From IMG/VR virus record IMGVR_UViG_3300037851_001237, positions 1 to 27,611 of that record: 27,611 nt of DNA; one strand, written 5' to 3'. The DNA is from a virus. Taxonomy: Duplodnaviria; Caudoviricetes. The number at the start of each line of letters is the position of its first letter. Position 1 is the first letter of the stretch. Both the position numbers and the translations under genes were made by a program. The notes below the pieces were generated by a model. The model did not search any database and was not told the origin of the DNA. It worked only from the letters and a program-made list of their open reading frames with translations. Of the stretch, positions 3,163 to 23,497 are shown in pieces.

Positions 3163-3186
3163 AGGGTTAAGGGTTAAGGGTTAAGG
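3163..3186 (+). repeat. Short tandem repeat (AGGGTTA) x3.4
   Basis: agggtta agggtta agggtta agg read directly. Confidence 0.9.
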
Positions 3187-3192
3187 CTCCTA

Positions 3193-3242
3193 TCGTTCCC
3201 ACGCTCCAGCGTGGGAATGCGTTCCCGCCCGCTCCAGCGGGC
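3193..3242 (+). repeat. REP-like palindromic element, family A, copy 1
   Basis: TCGTTCCCACGCTCCAGCGTGGGAATGC hairpin plus second hairpin GCCCGCTCCAGCGGGC; exact 28-bp reverse complement at 6259-6286. Confidence 0.85.
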
Positions 3243-4853: not shown

Positions 4854-5381
4854 ATGAACATCAATGACCGAATCGACGCGCTTGAGGAGCAGCTCCAGCG
4901 CATCGCCGCCATGCTGACGCAGAGCGTAGAGATCGGCGAGGCGCGAGGCGACCTCCATCATCGGCATCTCATGTCGATCCACGAGCAGATTGACGCGGCG
5001 CTTCCCGTGCTTGAGGTGGTCGGCCAGCGTGTCGATGCGGTCTGCGTTCTGGTCGATAAGCTGAAGGTCAAAGTGGAGGCTGACGCCAACCTGCGCGGGA
5101 CTACGGATCGCTACATTTTGCAATTGCTGATGAAGCATCTGGGGGCGTCCAGAAGCGGCTTCATCTTCCTGCTCGAACAAGAAATCGCCAAAGCTGGCGA
5201 ACTCGCGCCGCTGCTGCGGAAGCAATTTCAGCCATACATCGACGGCAGCCGGGAAGCGCTTTTCTCCGACTTTCCGGAACAATCAGTTGGGCTGCCTTCG
5301 CCCGCCAATCGGCCATCCTGGTTTCGTGGCGTGATTGAAGGAGGGCTGACTCCAGCATCAGACGACGAGACTTCGTCCTAG
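4854..5381 (+). CDS. Hypothetical accessory protein, 175 aa, helical, lower GC
   Basis: GGAGAGAG upstream of ATG; protein-like composition; no family recognised. Confidence 0.65.
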   Translation: MNINDRIDALEEQLQRIAAMLTQSVEIGEARGDLHHRHLMSIHEQIDAALPVLEVVGQRVDAVCVLVDKLKVKVEADANLRGTTDRYILQLLMKHLGASRSGFIFLLEQEIAKAGELAPLLRKQFQPYIDGSREALFSDFPEQSVGLPSPANRPSWFRGVIEGGLTPASDDETSS

Positions 5382-5457
5382 CAGACTCAAGCGCCTGCCG
5401 GAGTACTTCAAAATCCGTTGCGCTTAAGTAGGCATCTGGTTTGGTTTTATTGTTCAT
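5161..5457 (-). CDS. Possible small protein, 98 aa, overlapping 4854..5381 tail-to-tail
   Basis: GGAG SD upstream of ATG 5457; the ~220-bp antisense overlap makes it doubtful. Confidence 0.3.
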   Translation of the reverse strand: MNNKTKPDAYLSATDFEVLRQALESARTKSRRLMLESALLQSRHETRMADWRAKAAQLIVPESRRKALPGCRRCMAEIASAAAARVRQLWRFLVRAGR

Positions 5458-5511
5458 TCGATACTCCGGCAGCTGGAGCAGTTCCAGCGGGTAGGTTTCG
5501 GTTACAGCCCC

Positions 5512-5535
5512 TGGAGCCCGGCCCTGGGGCCGGGC
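5512..5535 (+). repeat. 21-bp direct repeat / REP-like palindrome, copy 2 (complete hairpin)
   Basis: TGGA GCCCGGCCC TG GGGCCGGGC. Confidence 0.85.
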
Positions 5536-5550
5536 GTGAAGGCGGCGGGG

Positions 5551-5733
5551 CTACAGCACCAGCAGGGCGAAGGTCCACAAGATGGTCGCGAAGTCCAGCA
5601 ACGCCCCGGCGATCTCCTCGCCCAGGGTGGTTGGTCGCGGCTGCTGCGGGTATTGGCCCTTTCCGATGCGCCGCAGCGCATTGGCGAAGGTAAAAAAGAA
5701 AAGAGCAAACATTGCGTAGAGGTAAATCGTCAT
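5551..5733 (-). CDS. Small two-TM membrane protein, 60 aa
   Basis: MTIYLYAMFALFFFTFANALRRIGKGQYPQQPRPTTLGEEIAGALLDFATILWTFALLVL; weak SD; start shares CATG with the plus-strand gene. Confidence 0.4.
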   Translation of the reverse strand: MTIYLYAMFALFFFTFANALRRIGKGQYPQQPRPTTLGEEIAGALLDFATILWTFALLVL

Positions 5734-6052
5734 GGCGGATTCCGAAGTGGGGTTTTGGGTTGTGTTGGCTAAACAGGCCCTGGACGTGATGAAGGCGGCC
5801 AAGGAGTTGATCCCGGTGGATCGCCGGCCCGAAATGGACCGCGCCATCGAACAGGCTGACCAGCAACTGCGGAGATCCGACGCGGCCCTGGCGCAAGCGC
5901 TTGGTTACCCCCTCTGCCGCTGCACCTTCCCGCCCCAGGTCATGTTGGCGAACGGCCGCGACGGCTATTACTGTCCAGGGTGCAAGCGGGATACCGGCCC
6001 GCAATACGCCGAGGTAGCGCCCCGCGATGATCGGTTCGATGGGTTCATTTAG
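5732..6052 (+). CDS. Hypothetical Cys-rich (putative Zn-binding) protein, 106 aa
   Basis: GAGG SD; helical N-terminus then LGYPLCRCTFPPQVML...YYCPGCK. Confidence 0.7.
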   Translation: MADSEVGFWVVLAKQALDVMKAAKELIPVDRRPEMDRAIEQADQQLRRSDAALAQALGYPLCRCTFPPQVMLANGRDGYYCPGCKRDTGPQYAEVAPRDDRFDGFI

Positions 6053-6219
6053 TTGGGCGTGCTGCACTTAATCATGTCGTAAAGCGCCGCACAGGAAGCG
6101 CCAAGACCGAGCGCGATCCCGACATACAGGCACGGGGCGACGTTGGCGGCCTGGAGCGCCATTGACGCGGTGCCGGTATAAAGCCCCATTACGCTCACAA
6201 ACCTGAGAGCTTTAAGCAT
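6049..6219 (-). CDS. Small two-TM membrane protein, 56 aa
   Basis: GAGGTGG SD before ATG 6219; MLKALRFVSVMGLYTGTASMALQAANVAPCLYVGIALGLGASCAALYDMIKCSTPN; stop overlaps the stop of 5732..6052. Confidence 0.5.
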   Translation of the reverse strand: MLKALRFVSVMGLYTGTASMALQAANVAPCLYVGIALGLGASCAALYDMIKCSTPN

Positions 6220-6235
6220 AACCACCTCTATCCAC

Positions 6236-6286
6236 GCGCCGCTGGAGCGGCGCACTCTGCATTCCCACGCTGGAGCGTGGGAACGA
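6236..6286 (-). repeat. REP-like palindromic element, family A, copy 2
   Basis: GCATTCCCACGCTGGAGCGTGGGAACGA (6259-6286) is the exact reverse complement of 3193-3220; second hairpin GCGCCGCTGGAGCGGCGC. Confidence 0.85.
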
Positions 6287-6362
6287 GAAGAGCCAAATAA
6301 GCGCCCCTCAGACGCTCCCGGCGCCCCACCCGCTGCCATCGCCCGCCGAAGCGCCTAGACCC

Positions 6363-6505: not shown

Positions 6506-7579
6506 ATGAACCGGACGCCACTCAGCCAGCTCTCCTCTCCCAACGTCGCCGCCTGCACGGTGGAACTCCCTTCGGCAGGCTCAGGGACCGACCCTTCGAC
6601 GGGGCGGCCCCATCGCCCGTCGATGGGCGCGTTCCAGATCTTCCCGTCGGGTGAGTTCCGCGCCAGCCAGGGGGCGCTGCTGGGCTCCGGCCCCTGGCGC
6701 TGTTCCGCTGATTCCGCCGCGCGGGTGATCGCCGCCGCCAGGGGGCGGGGGCTTAAGATCGCCATCGACTACGGCCACCAGACCCTGCTTGCCGAGAAGA
6801 ACGGCCAGCCCGCCCCCGCGGCGGGGTGGATCGATCCCGCCCGCCTCGTCTGGGACGAAGGTCGCGGCCTGTTCGACCCGGCGCCGGAGTGGACCGCCAA
6901 GGCCGCCGCCGCCATCGACGCCGGAGAGTTCCGCTACGGCTCGCCGGTGTTCCGCTACGACCCCGCTTCGGGCGAGGTGCTGGAGCTGCTCCACGTCGCC
7001 CTGCTCAATACCCCGGCCATCGACGGCTTCAAACCCGTCGGGGCCGCTTCCGCTTCACCCACCTCAGAGGATGCGCTGCGCATGAAATCGCTGCTGAAAC
7101 CCCTTGGTCTGCCCGAAGACGCCGATGAGCTGGCGGCCCTGGCAGCCCTCTCCACCCTGATCACCGAGCGCGACGGGCTGCGCTCCCAACTGGATCAGGC
7201 CCAGACCGCCGCGGCCTCCGCCGCCCCCCTGGCGCTGGTAACACAGCTCCAAGGCGAAATCGCCGCCCTCAAGGCGGGCGAGACCGCCCGCGAGGTGGAC
7301 GGCCTGATCGCCGCCGGCCTGGCCGACGGGCGCATCCTGCCGACGATGGAGGCCTGGGCGCGCGGCCTGGCCGCCACCAGCGTCCAGTCGCTGCGGGACT
7401 ATCTGGCCCAGGCCCAGCCCATCGCGGCGCTGACCGCCAGCCAGACCGGGGGCAAGCAGCCGGCCGGGGTGGGCGGGGGTTCCCCGACCCTCAACGCCGA
7501 TGAGCTGGCGGTATGCAAGGCGATGGGCTACAGCCCGGACGATTTCATCAAGGCCCGCATGGCCGAGCAGGAGGGTTAA
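6506..7579 (+). CDS. Mu-like prophage I protein (head maturation protease/scaffold), 357 aa
   Basis: Start moved to ATG 6506; FQIFPSGEFRA, IAIDYGHQTL...GQPAPAAGW, WT.KA...I.AGEFRYGSPVF, LLHVALLNTPAIDG motifs. Confidence 0.95.
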   Translation: MNRTPLSQLSSPNVAACTVELPSAGSGTDPSTGRPHRPSMGAFQIFPSGEFRASQGALLGSGPWRCSADSAARVIAAARGRGLKIAIDYGHQTLLAEKNGQPAPAAGWIDPARLVWDEGRGLFDPAPEWTAKAAAAIDAGEFRYGSPVFRYDPASGEVLELLHVALLNTPAIDGFKPVGAASASPTSEDALRMKSLLKPLGLPEDADELAALAALSTLITERDGLRSQLDQAQTAAASAAPLALVTQLQGEIAALKAGETAREVDGLIAAGLADGRILPTMEAWARGLAATSVQSLRDYLAQAQPIAALTASQTGGKQPAGVGGGSPTLNADELAVCKAMGYSPDDFIKARMAEQEG

Positions 7580-8025: not shown

Positions 8026-8937
8026 ATGGTTATCAACAACACGGTTTTGGCCGCCCTGCGGACCACCTTCCGCAACGATTTCCAGCGCGGCCTGGAGTCC
8101 GTTCCCAAGTTGCGAGAACGGGTATCCACGATGGTCCCCAGCACCACCGCCCTCAACACCTACGGCTGGCTGGAGGGAATGCCGGGGATGCGCGAATGGA
8201 TCGGCGAGCGGCTGATTCACAACCTGAAGGAGCGCGCCTACCAGCTCAGCAACAAGACCTGGGAGAGCACGGTCGGGGTGCGCCGCGAGGACATCGAGGA
8301 CGACAACCTGGGCATCTACGGCCCGACGATGCAGATGCTGGGCGCGGAGGCCGGCGAACACCCCGAGCTGCTGGTGTGGGACCTGCTGCTGGCCGGCTTC
8401 GCCGCCACCAAGGGTCTGGCGTGGGACGGGCAGTATTTCTTCGACTCCGACCATCTGACATGGGACGCCAACGGGGCCGAGACGACCTTCTCGAATACCG
8501 GCGGCGGCAGTGGCGCGGCCTGGTTCCTCGCCGACCTGAGCAAGCCGCTCAAGCCGGTCATTTTCCAGGAGCGGCGCAAGCTGGCCTTCACCGCCAAAGA
8601 CCGGATGGAGGATGACAACGTATTCGAGCGCAGCGAGTACCAGTACGGCTGCGACGCCCGTTACAACGCCGGTTTCGGGCTGTTCCAGACGATCTACGGC
8701 AGCAAGGACACCCTGAGCGAGGCCAACGTGGTGGCCGGGCGCACCGCCTTGATGGGGCAGCGCAAGCCGAGCGGGGCGAAGCTGAACCTGAACCCCAACA
8801 CCATCATCTGCGGGCCGTCCAATCTCGCGGCGGCGCTGAAGATAGCCGACGCCCAATTGGTGGCAAGCGGCAACGCGGGGGTGAGCAACGTCTGGGCCGG
8901 TCGCTTCCAGGTGCTGGAAGTGCCGTATTTGACTTGA
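8026..8937 (+). CDS. Mu-like major head subunit gpT
   Basis: VPSTT..NTYGWL..MPGMREWIGER, NKTWESTVGV.REDIEDDNLGIY, DGQYFFDSDH, KPVIFQER, YGCDARYNAGFG; AAGGAGG SD. Confidence 0.96.
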   Translation: MVINNTVLAALRTTFRNDFQRGLESVPKLRERVSTMVPSTTALNTYGWLEGMPGMREWIGERLIHNLKERAYQLSNKTWESTVGVRREDIEDDNLGIYGPTMQMLGAEAGEHPELLVWDLLLAGFAATKGLAWDGQYFFDSDHLTWDANGAETTFSNTGGGSGAAWFLADLSKPLKPVIFQERRKLAFTAKDRMEDDNVFERSEYQYGCDARYNAGFGLFQTIYGSKDTLSEANVVAGRTALMGQRKPSGAKLNLNPNTIICGPSNLAAALKIADAQLVASGNAGVSNVWAGRFQVLEVPYLT

Positions 8938-8946
8938 TGAAAGGAG

Positions 8947-8973
8947 GCGGCCATCTCGAACCGAGATGGCCGC
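8947..8973. terminator. Perfect 12-bp hairpin between capsid gene and mini-array; likely terminator or RNA stabiliser
   Basis: GCGGCCATCTCG-AAC-CGAGATGGCCGC; U-tract weak on both strands. Confidence 0.6.
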
Positions 8974-9063
8974 TTAGAAATCCCCGCTGACGCGGGGAAC
9001 ACCCGACGATGATGGTTTTGGGCTTGATGGGCAGCGGTTCATCCCCGCGAGCGCGGGGAAAAC
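8974..9063 (-). CRISPR. Type I-E mini-CRISPR array: 2 repeats, 1 spacer, no cas genes
   Basis: Minus strand: GTTTTCCCCGCGCTCGCGGGGATGAACCG (9063-9035), 32-nt spacer CTGCCCATCAAGCCCAAAACCATCATCGTCGG (9034-9003), GTGTTCCCCGCGTCAGCGGGGATTTCTAA (9002-8974). The 29+32 geometry and sequence match the I-E consensus GTGTTCCCCGCGCCAGCGGGGATAAACCG. Confidence 0.92.
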
Positions 9064-9075
9064 ATTGGCAAAACG

Positions 9076-9103
9076 ATATTACCACTGGATACCAACATGC
9101 CAA
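9076..9103 (-). promoter_or_regulatory. Predicted sigma70 promoter for the mini-array
   Basis: TTGGCA (9103-9098), 16 bp, extended -10 TGG-TAATAT (9084-9076), 12 nt upstream of the first repeat. Confidence 0.65.
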
Positions 9104-9282
9104 AAGACGAAACAAAGATCGAACCCGCGAAGCTGTGCGTCATCGCCCGCTCCGAGGGTTTCCGCCGCGCCGGCCGCGCCTGGAGCGTCGCCCCAACCGA
9201 GGTGGAGACCAAGGAGTTCTCCGCCGATCAGCTCGCCGCCCTGCGCGCCGATCCGATGCTGATCGTCCAGGACGTGAAGTAA
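9097..9282 (+). CDS. Mu gp35-like / FluMu N-terminal (HI1506-related) protein
   Basis: EGFRRAGRAW...FSADQLAALRADPML.V motif; position after the capsid gene. Confidence 0.85.
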   Translation: MPKDETKIEPAKLCVIARSEGFRRAGRAWSVAPTEVETKEFSADQLAALRADPMLIVQDVK

Positions 9283-9288
9283 GCCGCG

Positions 9289-9714
9289 ATGGCCTACGCC
9301 ACCCAGGCCCAACTGATCGACCACTGCGGCGAGCTGGAGTTGATCCAGCTCACCGATCGCGAGGCCGGCGCGGTGCTCGATACGGGGGTGCTAGAAACCG
9401 CCCGCGCGGGGGTGGAGAGCCTGATGGACGGCTACATCGGCCGCCGCTACGCGGTGCCGGTATCGCCAGTCCCGGATCTGCTGGTGTGGATCTGCTGCGC
9501 CCTCACCCGCCATCGGCTCTGGAAAGATGCCGCGGATCCAAAAGTGACCGCCGACGCCAAGCTGGCCGAGGAGCGACTGGCCGCCATATCCAAGGGCGTC
9601 ATCGACCTGCCGGGCTGCGCCTGGGCGGTGCAGCCGGCGGCGGAACAAGCCCATATCGAAATGACCAACGGCGGGGATGCGCTGTGGAGTAGGGGACGCG
9701 GAGGGTTCCTATGA
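9289..9714 (+). CDS. Mu gp36/J-like head-tail connector (DUF1320)
   Basis: MAYAT...L....GE.ELIQLTDR...MDGYI..RY.VP....P..L..ICC.L.R.RL...L.AISKG.I.L. Confidence 0.92.
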   Translation: MAYATQAQLIDHCGELELIQLTDREAGAVLDTGVLETARAGVESLMDGYIGRRYAVPVSPVPDLLVWICCALTRHRLWKDAADPKVTADAKLAEERLAAISKGVIDLPGCAWAVQPAAEQAHIEMTNGGDALWSRGRGGFL

Positions 9715-16700: not shown

Positions 16701-18852
16701 GGCGTCGGATAGGCTGCTCGAATCTCAGCGTGATCAGGAGCTGCGGGCGAAGGTCGCCGCCGAGATGTATGGCGACCAGTCCAACCGGGTCAAACAACTC
16801 GCCGCCGAATACCAGGCGGCGCAGCAGCGGCTGAAGGAGTTGAACGCGGCCCAGGAGCTGGGGGCCAGCGTCGCCAAGCGCCGGGCCGATGCCGAGGCGG
16901 AGCTGGCCCAGGTGGAGGACCGGCTGGAGGGGCTGACCATCCTGCTCAAGGCCGGGCAGGAGAACGTCCGCGAGGAGCACGAGCGGCTGTCGCTGAGCGC
17001 GATTCAGCTCCGCGACAAGCTGAAGGAGTTGGAGGCCCAGGAGCTGGCAGGGAAGGAGGCTACACAACAGGTGGCGGATGCCACCGAGGCGGCCAAGGAG
17101 GCCAAGTTGCGCTATGCCGACGCGCTCCAGGATGTCATCAAGGCCCTGGAGCTGGAACGCGCCCAGCAGCAGCGGGATCACGATCTCAATATGCAGATCG
17201 TCGAAGGCAAGAAGGCGCAGCAGGAACAGGTCAAGAAGCTGGCGGAGGCGCGCCAGGATGAGGTAACGGCGTCGCGGGCGGCCTACGAAATCGCGCGGCT
17301 GGAGGCCGATCAGGCGCGGATTACGGCGGCGGACAAGGAGAAGGAGGCGCGCAATGCCCTCGATGCGGCCCGGCGGATCAAGGAGGCGCTGATTCTTCAG
17401 GCGGGCGGGGTCAAGAACCTCACCGCCGAACAGAAAGATCAAATCGCCGCGGCGGAACATGCGGCGAAGATGGCGCGGGAGGAGTCCTACGCCCTCAACG
17501 ATGCGGCCAGGGCGGCTAAGCAGATGGCGTCCGATGTTTGGCGGGCGGCCACCAGCAATGACGAGCTTGCGGATTCCGCCAAGCGGGCGGCCGATGAGGC
17601 GGCTCGCCTCGCCGAGGAACAGGCCAAGCTGGCGGATCAACAGCGCCGGGCGGCGCAGGCGGCGCGGGTGGAGGTCACCTCCCTGGACGACCTGGCCCGG
17701 CGCTGGGGCATCGTGGCCGATGGCTTGGGGGAGTATGCCGAGGCGGCGGCCAAGGCGACCCAGGCGGATTATCTGGAGGCCCAGCGGCTGGAGGCCCTGG
17801 TGGGCGGCGGCGGGTTTTTGGAGCAATACAACAAGCTGCTGGTGGAGACCGCCGCGGCGATGCGCCGGGCGGCGCAGGCCGGGGAGGAGTGGCATCCGGG
17901 CGGCGGGCTCCGGGAGGCTGTCGCCCTCACCGATGAGCTGGCGGCCGCTACCGAGAGCGCGGCGGAGCGGCTGGCGCGGGTGACGGCCGAGGCGGAAGCG
18001 GCGCATCAGGGGTTCGTGGCGCGGTCGGAGGCGATCCGAAAGGAGTTCGAGGCCACTTCGAAGGCGGTTGAGGAGCGCGGCCAGGCCAGCGCGGCGGCCT
18101 ACGCGGCGACGGCCCAAGAAAGTATCGATGCGGCGGCGGCGGCGCTGGCGGATGCCGGCGGGGCCTCCGAGCGGGCGCTCGGCTGGGCGGATTCGCTGCT
18201 GCGGCGCTATGCGGACCTCGACGGGGTGAACCTGTCGAACCTCTCCCAGGCGTTGGAGCGGGTGCGTCAGCAGCAAATGGCGTTGCTGGAGTCGGCGAAG
18301 GCGACGCGGGAGGCGTTGCAAGATCAACTTGACGAGATGGACGGCAACCAGGCCGCCATCGAGGAGCGGCGCTATGCCGGCCAGGTGGCGGATCTGGAGG
18401 CGCAACTGGCGGAGGCCAAGCGGGCCGGGCAGCGGGAGGCGGAGACGGAGCTGAAGGCGTCGCTGAAGCTGGCGGAGGAGTTTCATAAACGGACTATCGA
18501 CCGGATCAAGGCCGATGCCGACCAGGCCAAGACGAATGCCGAGGCGGCCCGACAAGAGGCGGCGCGGCGGGAGGAGGAGACGATTCAGGCGGCCAGGGAG
18601 TCGGCGACGGCGGTTGACCGGACGCTTGGAGTGGCGGATTCGCGAACCCGCGCCACCGATGTAGCGCGGGAGACGATCCGGCCGGCCGCGGCGGTGACGC
18701 CGGAGCGGGTAGCGGCGGCGCCGGCGAAGGTAGTGGAGATCAAGTTTGTCGCGCCGGGCGGGGGGCAGTCGGTATCCCTCTGGGGCGATGGCGATGGGGC
18801 GGCGGATGGGCTGCTGCGGATTCTAGAGCTGAGCGGGGCGGTGATGCGATGA
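13714..18852 (+). CDS. Tail tape measure protein, 1712 aa
   Basis: Ala/Glu/Gln/Lys-rich coiled coil; tape-measure domain ...ALQAVGQMLSKGTVSAEELRGQLGERLPGA... Confidence 0.95.
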   Translation: MAGQTIETGVLIKARVEGQGQISGLSAEVENLAGVSDEAAAAAGPLARELQQLAKQQAAQAALVAVSEAADQVAKALANAEQAQADLSQKFAAAESALADAEQGYRASFDAVVRLAEEQTALKTALAGASGELDAAADALKAAKAEMSRLEQAASANGSALGKARQSAADYADDIQATKNQIAELRAEFARQLDAVNKLGTRQQTFATETRNLESAYAEAQGAVAEYRGEMDALQAAYRSDKSKIKEAIEAERAKLGEAKDAAAGYASEVKALQAAYRADKSDANAQALEAMRAKLAGAKQETASYGGEIKRLQEAYRADPSEEYTQALEATRAKLTQAEQAEAEYAKQLNLTGVASAENQRQTDAAWKGLAKTQDAITEAESKLQDYRGEMGRSNDAARQLEKSERELAAAIDQAGNEVKSAGAAYDQAQAKQAGLKAAVQTTGKAIEQANADLSRQGAAVKEATSEYGRAETALKLQTDRTAELGTKSASLAGELDKVRNRAKAAGLDTENLTRNSVNLSGRLAELKQRIADTSAQHQQAAQKAKENAEAQRQAGRGAQEAAGGFDSLKQAGGLAAIAMVAKQMFDAATSAETLSRGLTAATGSAEAGADALQFVRAEAQRLGVGIDEAGRAYVGLAAAARGAGVSTEDTRQIFSAVAGAMGALGKSTADTEGALQAVGQMLSKGTVSAEELRGQLGERLPGAMSAAARAAGVTEAEFSKMLESGQILAKDFLPKFAEELQKMGGGTGEIKGLSAEFTRLMNTVTAAFAALGNAGGGEAATEVFRNLREAVAGLGVGLAGVTGYAKATIDSMGVLAAALATGNWADAPQALRDEFEQAAEQVRDAADSLYGLNDAGKGAASGLKETATAAEKAADASQKTAAAITTVDAAIKSAAEQNKTLGESNLAAAEAAQRVADASGNEAAALAAAVEVAQRKTDLAVLQADAEEAQLTTARQRLEALQAEAKAVGGLTPELAKKIEAAAKDVQAMEAQLEASDRLLESQRDQELRAKVAAEMYGDQSNRVKQLAAEYQAAQQRLKELNAAQELGASVAKRRADAEAELAQVEDRLEGLTILLKAGQENVREEHERLSLSAIQLRDKLKELEAQELAGKEATQQVADATEAAKEAKLRYADALQDVIKALELERAQQQRDHDLNMQIVEGKKAQQEQVKKLAEARQDEVTASRAAYEIARLEADQARITAADKEKEARNALDAARRIKEALILQAGGVKNLTAEQKDQIAAAEHAAKMAREESYALNDAARAAKQMASDVWRAATSNDELADSAKRAADEAARLAEEQAKLADQQRRAAQAARVEVTSLDDLARRWGIVADGLGEYAEAAAKATQADYLEAQRLEALVGGGGFLEQYNKLLVETAAAMRRAAQAGEEWHPGGGLREAVALTDELAAATESAAERLARVTAEAEAAHQGFVARSEAIRKEFEATSKAVEERGQASAAAYAATAQESIDAAAAALADAGGASERALGWADSLLRRYADLDGVNLSNLSQALERVRQQQMALLESAKATREALQDQLDEMDGNQAAIEERRYAGQVADLEAQLAEAKRAGQREAETELKASLKLAEEFHKRTIDRIKADADQAKTNAEAARQEAARREEETIQAARESATAVDRTLGVADSRTRATDVARETIRPAAAVTPERVAAAPAKVVEIKFVAPGGGQSVSLWGDGDGAADGLLRILELSGAVMR

Positions 18853-19001
18853 GTCGGCCGAATGAAGTTTTGACCACGGAACACACGGAAAAGACGGAAG
18901 GGCGGATGCCAAAAGGGCGATCCGCCAAGCTCCAATCGGATTTGTTTTCCTCTACTTCCGTGTCTTCCGTGTGTTCCGTGGACGACTCTTTAGGGCGGTG
19001 A
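18849..19001 (+). repeat. MITE-like element with 9-bp-periodic inverted arms, open as a 50-aa ORF
   Basis: Arms CCACGGAACACACGGAAAAGACGGAAG (18874-18900) and CTTCCGTGTCTTCCGTGTGTTCCGTGG (18955-18981), 25/27 complementary; ORF MSRPNEVLTTEHTEKTEG...SVSSVCSVDDSLGR starts at the ATGA overlap with the tape-measure stop. Confidence 0.8.
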
Positions 19002-19005
19002 TGCG

Positions 19006-19218
19006 ATGAATCAGCCGAATGAAGATTTGACCACGGACCGCACGGAAGACACGGAAAAGACGGAAATCGCCCGGTTGCGTCGCATCGTCCAGGAGCAGGA
19101 GGAGGAGCTGTCCAACCTATCCAGCCGCCTGGCGCGCGTGGAGGGGGCGCTGCGCACCGATGCCGGTTTCGCGGCGCGGCTCACTGAACCGCTGCCCCGC
19201 TCGCTGGTGCGCCGCTGA
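19006..19218 (+). CDS. Small coiled-coil protein with repeat-derived N-terminus, 70 aa
   Basis: LTTDRTEDTEKTE from the repeat arm, then EIARLRRIVQEQEEELSNLSSRLARVEGAL; TGATG coupling. Confidence 0.55.
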   Translation: MNQPNEDLTTDRTEDTEKTEIARLRRIVQEQEEELSNLSSRLARVEGALRTDAGFAARLTEPLPRSLVRR

Positions 19219-22600: not shown

Positions 22601-23136
22601 AGATCTCGGGCCAGGTGACCTTCACCCGGCCCTTGTCGCACGACTTCCCGGCGGGGTCGGGCTGTTCCTCGGAGCTGCTGTTCGGGGATTTGCAGGCCCG
22701 CGTTACGCCCCCCTTCGACCAGCAGACCTGGACCGGGGTCTGGTCGGATACCCTGATCGGCAACGCGACGGGCACGGCCAGCTTCAACCATGCGGTTTAT
22801 CCGATCACGACCACGGATCGGGGGGCGGCGCAGCAGCGGTGGATGCTGCTATTCACCTCGCCGACGATGGTGCGGATCGTGGGGGAGACGGCGGGCGTGG
22901 TCGGGGAGATGCCCATCGCCGACGAGATCGGCCCCCTGAACCCGGCCACTGGAGCGCCCTATTTCGTGGTCGATCCGTTGGGGTGGGGGACGGGGTGGTC
23001 CACCGGGAACCTGCTGCGGTTCAACACCGTGGCGGCGAATTACCCGGTGTGGGTGGCCAGGACGGTGCAGCAGGGGCCGGCTTATGCCGGGAGTGATTCT
23101 TTCAGGTTGCAGGTTAGGGGGGATGTCGATGCGTAA
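19609..23136 (+). CDS. Large tail tip/baseplate protein, 1175 aa
   Basis: DI.L.AS..L.D...GGG......V.DG.SNNLFPDISELDRT.GRVSLRK.F N-terminus; YLPLDA.ILGLNPVRLPSDGRVPI; repeated DDG.G...G.V.Y..G modules. Confidence 0.85.
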   Translation: MPITDQDIRLMASSGLDDSEYGGGPMSPNEVMDGVSNNLFPDISELDRTMGRVSLRKAFAAVTADNREAYYGSGAIIDQLPEDPLVGVALFSTRDWDDMRPAAQSRLEAYLARGPKFEAYFYDWHTAGQKAALLLAHPAIEMPAVGETLVILYDGGLVTQEEQFVRVLASESVVRDFVEQGGTAFQQQVITLTLSDPLERDINGGSPSLYGERGQTHSIMAQVHKTIVADAARYYGMTLLTSPAALGDMAVQVADIFTKIVPTSQAESAIADAKPHADSAPLAVCGAPVTLSWYGTWDATHPFYLGQGFLPGSLSVAVNGVTVTDRGGKLLVNGAEVGAADYAGGVLTLTASSLSGSHTADFTPAAAPSRSPRTRQIPVTPEGRSGTISTILVPPPAPGGCALHYMAQGKWYVLRDDGSGSLKGADTSFGAGSINYSSGSLVCTLGALPDVGSAILLVWGSAVTDVDRSGGSAPVGLAVQGSQPGGAPGTYTLTWSDGTATRTATDDGAGNLEGDAVGEVDYSANRVLWYPKYLPAGGAVLTLAYSHGTPLAASFASPGRNPDGTITLTLPDTQVLPGTVKVSWTVSHAPYGSRQLTARDDGVGGLVGVAGAVVNYAAGTVTFQPDASREVRTPVIEYANRTAQGDGGPVEYIEQNVVSYTAQNLLFTLSGTVGVAYRVSDGPQAASDTATISYLEADLTPEFAEAIVSGSARLNYGGEVLVERYGRLDMDIDHATGAGTQAGTLDRATGLARLTQWTPGAQTTGYAEVASLLTSLGVSPVDAVTARTAAAPIRPGSFLLVYQMEGDPEIYTAQSTTGGEISGDFVRGWIDSETGVWSVRFGEWVTPAGHEAEPWYDADLIEPDGKIRSPMQAVGDSLRYTAVAYSYLPLDASILGLNPVRLPSDGRVPILRPGDVAVVHHEATITVATPADDQVIDCGRVRLARVEVRDGDGAKVATAKWSADLDAGLVTLLDVAGLPIPWTVTHRVEDMALVSDAQISGQVTFTRPLSHDFPAGSGCSSELLFGDLQARVTPPFDQQTWTGVWSDTLIGNATGTASFNHAVYPITTTDRGAAQQRWMLLFTSPTMVRIVGETAGVVGEMPIADEIGPLNPATGAPYFVVDPLGWGTGWSTGNLLRFNTVAANYPVWVARTVQQGPAYAGSDSFRLQVRGDVDA

Positions 23137-23497
23137 GCTGGACGAAGAGCTGACCACGGAATACACGGAAGACACGGAAAAGATGGAAAAGACGGAAGGC
23201 GAATCCCCCTGCTCTCGTTCCCACGCCTGTCGCGAGCCGGCCGGAGTGTCGGCCGGAGTGTCGGCCGGAGTGTCGGCCTCCAGGCCGACACCCAGCCGCG
23301 AAAGCGGCTTGTTCTCCGCCGGTGGGTGGCGGATGTGTCGCCCTGGAGGGCGACACTCCCGGCTCCAGGCCGTGCCCCCGCGCCATGCCCTCGATACCGT
23401 AAAAGCAGACATCCTTTCCTCTTCTTCCGTGTCTTCCGTGTCTTCCGTGGTTCCCTCTTCGTCCGCGTCTTCAGCGGCAACTCCACCTGGAGCCTAA
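23129..23497 (+). repeat. Composite repeat insertion (MITE-like arms enclosing a REP fragment, 12-bp tandem and REP doublet), open as a 122-aa ORF
   Basis: Arms 23153-23199 and 23424-23451; CTCGTTCCCACGC (23214-23226); (GGCCGGAGTGTC)x3 (23239-23274); GGAGTGTCGGCCTCCAGGCCGAC ... GTCGCCCTGGAGGGCGACACTCC. Confidence 0.8.

Follow-up and report, generated by a model that had tools for sequence, protein, structure and literature searches.

A single-spacer, apparently cas-less type I-E mini-array beside the major capsid gene of a Mu-like phage, and its candidate target in a sister lineage

The stretch of DNA analyzed here (the window) is a single virus record of 27.6 kb (27,611 nt), a contig that is incomplete at both ends. 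An earlier note on this sequence had described it as a prophage, which is not borne out by a record that consists of one virus contig. Comparison with PHROGs, Pfam and NCBIfam identified Mu-like genes for a transposase, divergent HTH regulators, a protease, the major capsid protein gpT, an adaptor and tail proteins, and from the transposase and the repressor-like genes we infer a temperate lifestyle. Of the 151 listed window ORFs, on a contig with incomplete ends, the scans covered 32 with PHROGs, 19 with Pfam and 26 with NCBIfam and gave no cas match; no acr model matched among 26 window ORFs. Four small ORFs upstream of the protease gene (4854–6339) have no Pfam, PHROGs or NCBIfam match; Mu-like phages of Pseudomonas keep acr genes near the equivalent position. 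The regulator region, together with several orphan ORFs, lies between two REP-like palindromes in inverted orientation (3185–3220 and 6259–6294), and families of short direct and inverted repeats of the CACGGAA type (18836–19065 and 23116–23465) flank small ORFs that are inserted among the tail genes.

Past the gpT gene, the minus strand carries, in order, a promoter-like site, a first repeat, a 32-nt spacer, a second repeat and a hairpin (Table 1). The array itself comprises two repeats, 61 nt apart, with one spacer between them; the range given for it in the earlier note was too short and left out repeat 1 and the promoter. A promoter scan of positions 8700–9400 returned two sites where 0.1 were expected. 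Relative to the commonest host repeat, repeat 1 differs solely at position 3, and repeat 2 at positions 13–15 (the loop) and 24–29. The parts that a crRNA would need are intact and decay is confined to the unused tail of repeat 2. The 7-bp stems of both repeats are predicted to fold on their own, and the 90-nt array alone is predicted to be able to fold repeat against repeat as well. The two loops read GCTC and GTCA, the latter falling outside the eight commonest host loops listed. With loops that differ, the repeats did not arise as plain copies of each other in a single acquisition.

Table 1. Features of the array, the adjoining genes and the matching segment of gpT (window positions)
Feature	Position	Strand	Basis or remark
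Mu-like major capsid gene gpT, 303 aa	8026..8937	+	PF10124 (E 6e-102); phrog_371
AAG (Lys252 codon), canonical I-E PAM	8779..8781	+	Lys in 8/8 members of the clade (tree)
Own ortholog of the protospacer, 24/32	8782..8813	+	Seed mismatches at 4, 5 and 7
AAGGAGG, ribosome-site-like, just past the gpT stop, no start codon after it	8941..8947	+	Sequence
Perfect 12-bp hairpin after repeat 2	8947..8973	-	Fold; U tract weak
Repeat 2	9002-8974	-	Stem intact, loop differs (positions 13-15), last 6 nt decayed
Spacer, 32 nt, sense to gpT	9034-9003	-	Reads LPIKPKTIIV(G)
Repeat 1	9063-9035	-	28/29 to host I-E repeat; 8-nt handle intact, ends in G
Sigma70-like promoter, TTGGCA-16-TAATAT with TG extension	9103-9076	-	Points into repeat 1; consensus match 9/12
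Next late gene, FluMu_N domain	9097..9282	+	PF17891; start overlaps the -35 box

The hairpin behind repeat 2 is likely a terminator, judging from its modeled fold; a terminator scan called none, this hairpin included. The AAGGAGG motif is possibly the point at which the cassette was inserted. The gap between gpT and the next gene measures 159 nt, compared to a median of 32 nt in 117 distant relatives (as long in 7 of the 117, by a crude ORF rule), a length that fits insertion of a cassette. A contig from a second study covers positions 9009–9159 with zero differences, which rules out an assembly artefact for repeat 1 and the greater part of the spacer. Run X1 may itself be the source of the window.

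The repeat pattern of the array was found at 26 GTDB loci in 20 genomes, six of which we take to be Chromatiaceae from their title or genus. At the Thiobaca locus, the only one scanned for such genes, we found cas3, cse1, cse2, cas7, cas5, cas6e and cas1. The earlier assignment of the repeats to type I-E is supported both by this full operon and by the 28/29 identity to the arrays. The spacer has the length seen in host arrays (32 nt). Like repeat 1, 644 of 661 host repeat units have G as their last base, in line with a PAM that ends in G. The 28-mer of the REP-like palindromes occurs in 51 copies in Lamprocystis purpurea, whereas Thiocystis violacea has a single copy and the other three Chromatiaceae and the five non-Chromatiaceae genomes tested have none. 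The runs X1 and X2 are both of freshwater origin. Together, the repeat matches, the palindrome and the freshwater runs suggest a host among the Chromatiaceae. Host prediction from spacers failed, with best matches of 26/32 lacking AAG. These concern a Thiobaca spacer (L174) that matches positions 7283–7314 of the minus strand, in the protease gene, and a Tepidiphilus spacer (L183) that matches positions 9338–9369 of the plus strand, in the adaptor gene. Either spacer could derive from a related Mu-like phage or match by chance.

The spacer matches a segment of the phage's own gpT gene, 160 nt from the array, at 24 of 32 positions. It keeps the gpT reading frame (residue 253); as had been noted before, AAG directly precedes it and the mismatches are at spacer positions 4, 5, 7, 9, 12, 18, 28 and 29. 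Three of these eight mismatches lie in the seed, of which only positions 1–3 pair. In type I-E targeting every sixth position is flipped out, and the mismatches at 12 and 18 fall on such positions. The runner-up site in the window reaches 21/32. None of 1000 base shuffles reached 24 matches and 15 of 1000 codon shuffles did, a figure that is inflated because the spacer itself stayed inside the searched window. We judged a control with 565 distinct, real 32-nt I-E spacers to be better than the shuffles: at least 24 matches anywhere in the window were reached by eight, 24 with any of four PAMs by one, and at least 22/32 with AAG by none, no spacer exceeding 21 in that last comparison. That a few control spacers attain 24/32 somewhere in this GC-rich window would allow the gpT match to be fortuitous and the spacer to derive from something else. 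This is highly improbable, as PAM, reading frame and a better-fitting homolog coincide at the same column. A family profile, which included that homolog, P0006, likewise puts the spacer in the correct frame and at residue 253, but with 2 of 565 control spacers scoring higher it is a weak test on its own. The homology of the spacer extends over gpT residues 253–263.

We scored 264 of 272 gpT proteins against the spacer peptide, eight being dropped for gaps or X. The best was P0006 (62% identical to the gpT of this phage), which reads K-LPIKPDTLIVG and agrees with the spacer peptide at 9 of 11 residues, followed by homologs with 7/11; the phage's own gpT scores 6/11. P0006 fits the seed better than the carrier's own protein does, and it alone among the 264 combines a PAM-capable preceding residue with a seed that can be clean. 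At the nucleotide level the protein sequence of P0006 would allow 29/32 at most, since no choice of codons removes the mismatches at 16, 18 and 22. Two observations count against reading this lineage as the target: P0006 differs from the spacer peptide at 2 of 11 residues, and Lys258 of the spacer is rare (1 of 119 homologs). In addition, as P0006 is just 62% identical, a host shared with the phage studied here is an assumption.

P0001 to P0008 form one clade (support 100/99 in a tree of 27 rows). Lys precedes the site in all nine proteins of at least 55% identity, Pro in 178 of the 264 overall, and AAG was present at 0 of 133 aligned sites in the fetched loci; the AAG PAM is thus seen only within this clade. 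Another homolog, P0121 (81%), has the distal TIIVG in common with the spacer. The carrier's own seed residues, LNLNPN, are common to P0002 (84%) and P0121 (81%). The seed mismatches to self therefore look like an old divergence between lineages, and we reject recent escape mutation in the seed of the carrier as the chief explanation.

Searches with exact and degenerate spacer patterns gave no match in IMG/VR, a spacer search of GTDB gave none, and no protospacer with up to three mismatches was present in 301 genomes of the Thiobaca family. Among GenBank phages the spacer gave chance partial matches only (E ≥ 0.9), and in runs X1 and X2 (75% and 92% of contigs read) only the array itself. The earlier proposal that the spacer stems from the gpT gene of a related phage therefore held at the protein level, through P0006 and the clade-wide Lys, whereas the near-perfect DNA match it expected in phage databases was found neither in IMG/VR nor among the GenBank phages. 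As no protospacer was found at the DNA level, we infer targeting from the protein comparison. The closest gpT matches were at most 53% identical in IMG/VR, below 60% in GenBank, at most 38% in the Thiobaca-family genomes and at most 44% in metagenomes, apart from one piece of 22 residues. With the C-terminus of P0006 as query no closer protein was obtained, 166 loci of gpT relatives held no repeat like that of the array (best 21/29), and Rfam returned nothing at threshold. The clade is thinly sampled, with nine proteins of at least 55% identity.

On these grounds we consider it likely, at a probability of roughly 0.72, that the locus is a cas-less, single-spacer I-E mini-array, set within the phage's head operon, whose crRNA would act with host Cascade and Cas3 on gpT in a sister lineage from the same phage clade, while the carrier's own allele would escape. 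Cas6e cuts at the repeat stem. Antisense transcription from the putative promoter would yield a precursor that Cas6e would cut at both stems, giving a canonical crRNA of 61 nt, made up of the 8-nt handle, the 32-nt spacer and a 21-nt hairpin. Because its tail has decayed, repeat 2 would not give rise to a further, spurious guide. Loaded into host Cascade, the crRNA would direct Cas3 to the gpT gene of an incoming sister phage, which would be destroyed, and the own allele would be spared through the three seed mismatches. In E. coli, according to the available text of PMC5904413, Cascade binding needs at least five seed base pairs (positions 1–5), and interference or priming needs 18–25 bp from the seed. 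Set against these requirements, pairing at positions 1–3 only predicts that self is spared.

The lack of a perfect target in IMG/VR, GenBank phages, GTDB, the 301 family genomes and runs X1 and X2 could also mean that the array is a former weapon whose target has drifted, now a relic or even a liability if the partial self-match primes host adaptation or nicks the lysogen. The own allele does retain AAG and 24/32 matches, an I-F spacer with five mismatches is described as harming lysogens of the Mu-like phage DMS3 (PMC11406979, in part), and priming is reported to withstand many mutations (PMC6212716, in part). We regard such a relic as unlikely, since decay has struck unused parts and left the promoter, the handle, the two stems and the length of the spacer intact, since self pairing at positions 1–3 falls short of the E. 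coli seed needs (PMC5904413), and since the clade, with nine proteins, is thinly sampled.

Quite unlikely, in our view, is a role chiefly in inhibiting host CRISPR, either as a Racr-like Cascade decoy or as a Cracr-like silencer of the cas promoter. A strong promoter of its own could let the RNA flood Cascade, and the available texts describe such competition for Cracrs (10.1101/2024.10.29.618823) and raise it elsewhere (PMC7099407). The array, however, has a full 32-nt spacer and two repeats, whereas the I-E Cracr spacers described in the accessible part of that first source measure 24 and 21 nt. Across 361 kb around 26 repeat-matching proxy loci, just three PAM-proximal runs of 9–12 nt were found (15–16/32), that of Thiobaca falling inside cas5. 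The best of 624 host spacers matched at 15/32, and the missing acr matches also speak against this reading.

The array and gpT are strikingly adjacent, and the late mRNA carries the complement of the spacer 190 nt downstream of the gpT segment, so that the two plus-strand segments are predicted to pair over about 24 bp (duplex -37.5 kcal/mol). The spacer might accordingly regulate the phage's own gpT, through weak Cascade binding or by pairing inside the late mRNA. Such pairing arises automatically, however, because a sense spacer sits in an antisense array. For regulation of self the seed would be expected to be kept, yet positions 4, 5 and 7 mismatch self and fit P0006, and off-target binding by Cascade in E. 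coli is described as being without effect on local expression (PMC5904413, in the part available). We therefore hold self-regulation to be very unlikely.

Targeting of a sister lineage, the reading we prefer, also bears on why targets adjoin the arrays directed at them, a proximity noted as unexplained in the available text of Medvedeva 2019 (PMC6858448). It is plausible that guide and immune allele are tightly linked here. With considerable doubt, we raise the idea of an RNA-guided, homing-like element, in which Cas3 would act at the gpT gene of a sibling and repair from the carrier would move array and immune capsid allele together. If true, homing would spread guide and immunity as one linked module and explain why target and array are close. 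Among 16 viral I-E loci, eight have two repeats (seven distinct, two at contig ends), and one phage among the seven distinct loci had a self-homolog within the flanks covered, at 31/32 and a distance of 309 nt; this sample is too small to generalize. Its single-spacer I-E mini-array (L209/L213, the same as L199 and L200; IMGVR_UViG_3300042282_000008 and 3300042276_000213) lies in the head module, flanked by a gene for a scaffold and one for a dCMP deaminase, with the major head gene coming next. The self-match, inside the deaminase ORF, has its one mismatch at position 14 and a non-canonical PAM, ACG, on which self-sparing there would rest.

Virus-borne mini-arrays are known from the interviral conflict of SPV1 and SPV2 (Medvedeva 2019, PMC6858448) and from phages (Faure 2019, as cited in PMC7099407 and PMC11656645). 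The available parts of these sources (PMC6858448, PMC7099407, PMC11656645) describe arrays of one or two spacers against related viruses, with spacers similar but not identical to the carrier, and 835 two-repeat viral mini-arrays have been catalogued (10.1101/2023.03.03.530964, in part). The cassette described here likely belongs to this class, as judged from its sequence: it has one spacer, a repeat like those of probable hosts, a predicted promoter of its own and no cas genes that we found, its spacer is similar without being identical to the orthologous locus of the carrier, and the presumed target is close to the array. It differs in being a bacterial type I-E array carried by a Mu-like phage whose host is probably a purple sulfur bacterium, its target is deduced at the protein level only with no reciprocal targeting seen, and its two repeats differ in the loop. 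Its leader, by eye, is unlike the listed host leaders. Our literature searches listed neither this phage nor a Mu-like I-E case nor homing by mini-arrays, although supplementary tables of the bioRxiv papers might list Mu-like cases.

Similarities extend to two further kinds of RNA. RNA anti-CRISPRs (Racr) are reportedly phage-encoded solitary repeat units that mimic host repeats; the array resembles them as a phage-encoded repeat mimic with no cas genes found, and differs in having two repeats around a spacer with a recognizable target. With Cracr and crlRNA, as far as the available texts go (Liu et al., 10.1101/2024.10.29.618823; Shmakov et al., 10.1101/2023.03.03.530964), it shares a cas-less repeat-spacer-repeat layout, decayed outer repeat parts and loading on host Cascade, here predicted. 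Cracr spacers, however, are shortened and match cas promoters, whereas this spacer is not shortened and its match lies in a capsid gene. The case for competition by way of viral mini-arrays rests mainly on archaeal viruses, the bacterial cases in the sources available resting on sequence matches. Among the latter, the present locus would be an unusually legible I-E example: the predicted expression cassette is complete, a target lineage can be identified, and a self control is built in. Mu-like phages of freshwater bacteria, probably Chromatiaceae, would thereby join the class.
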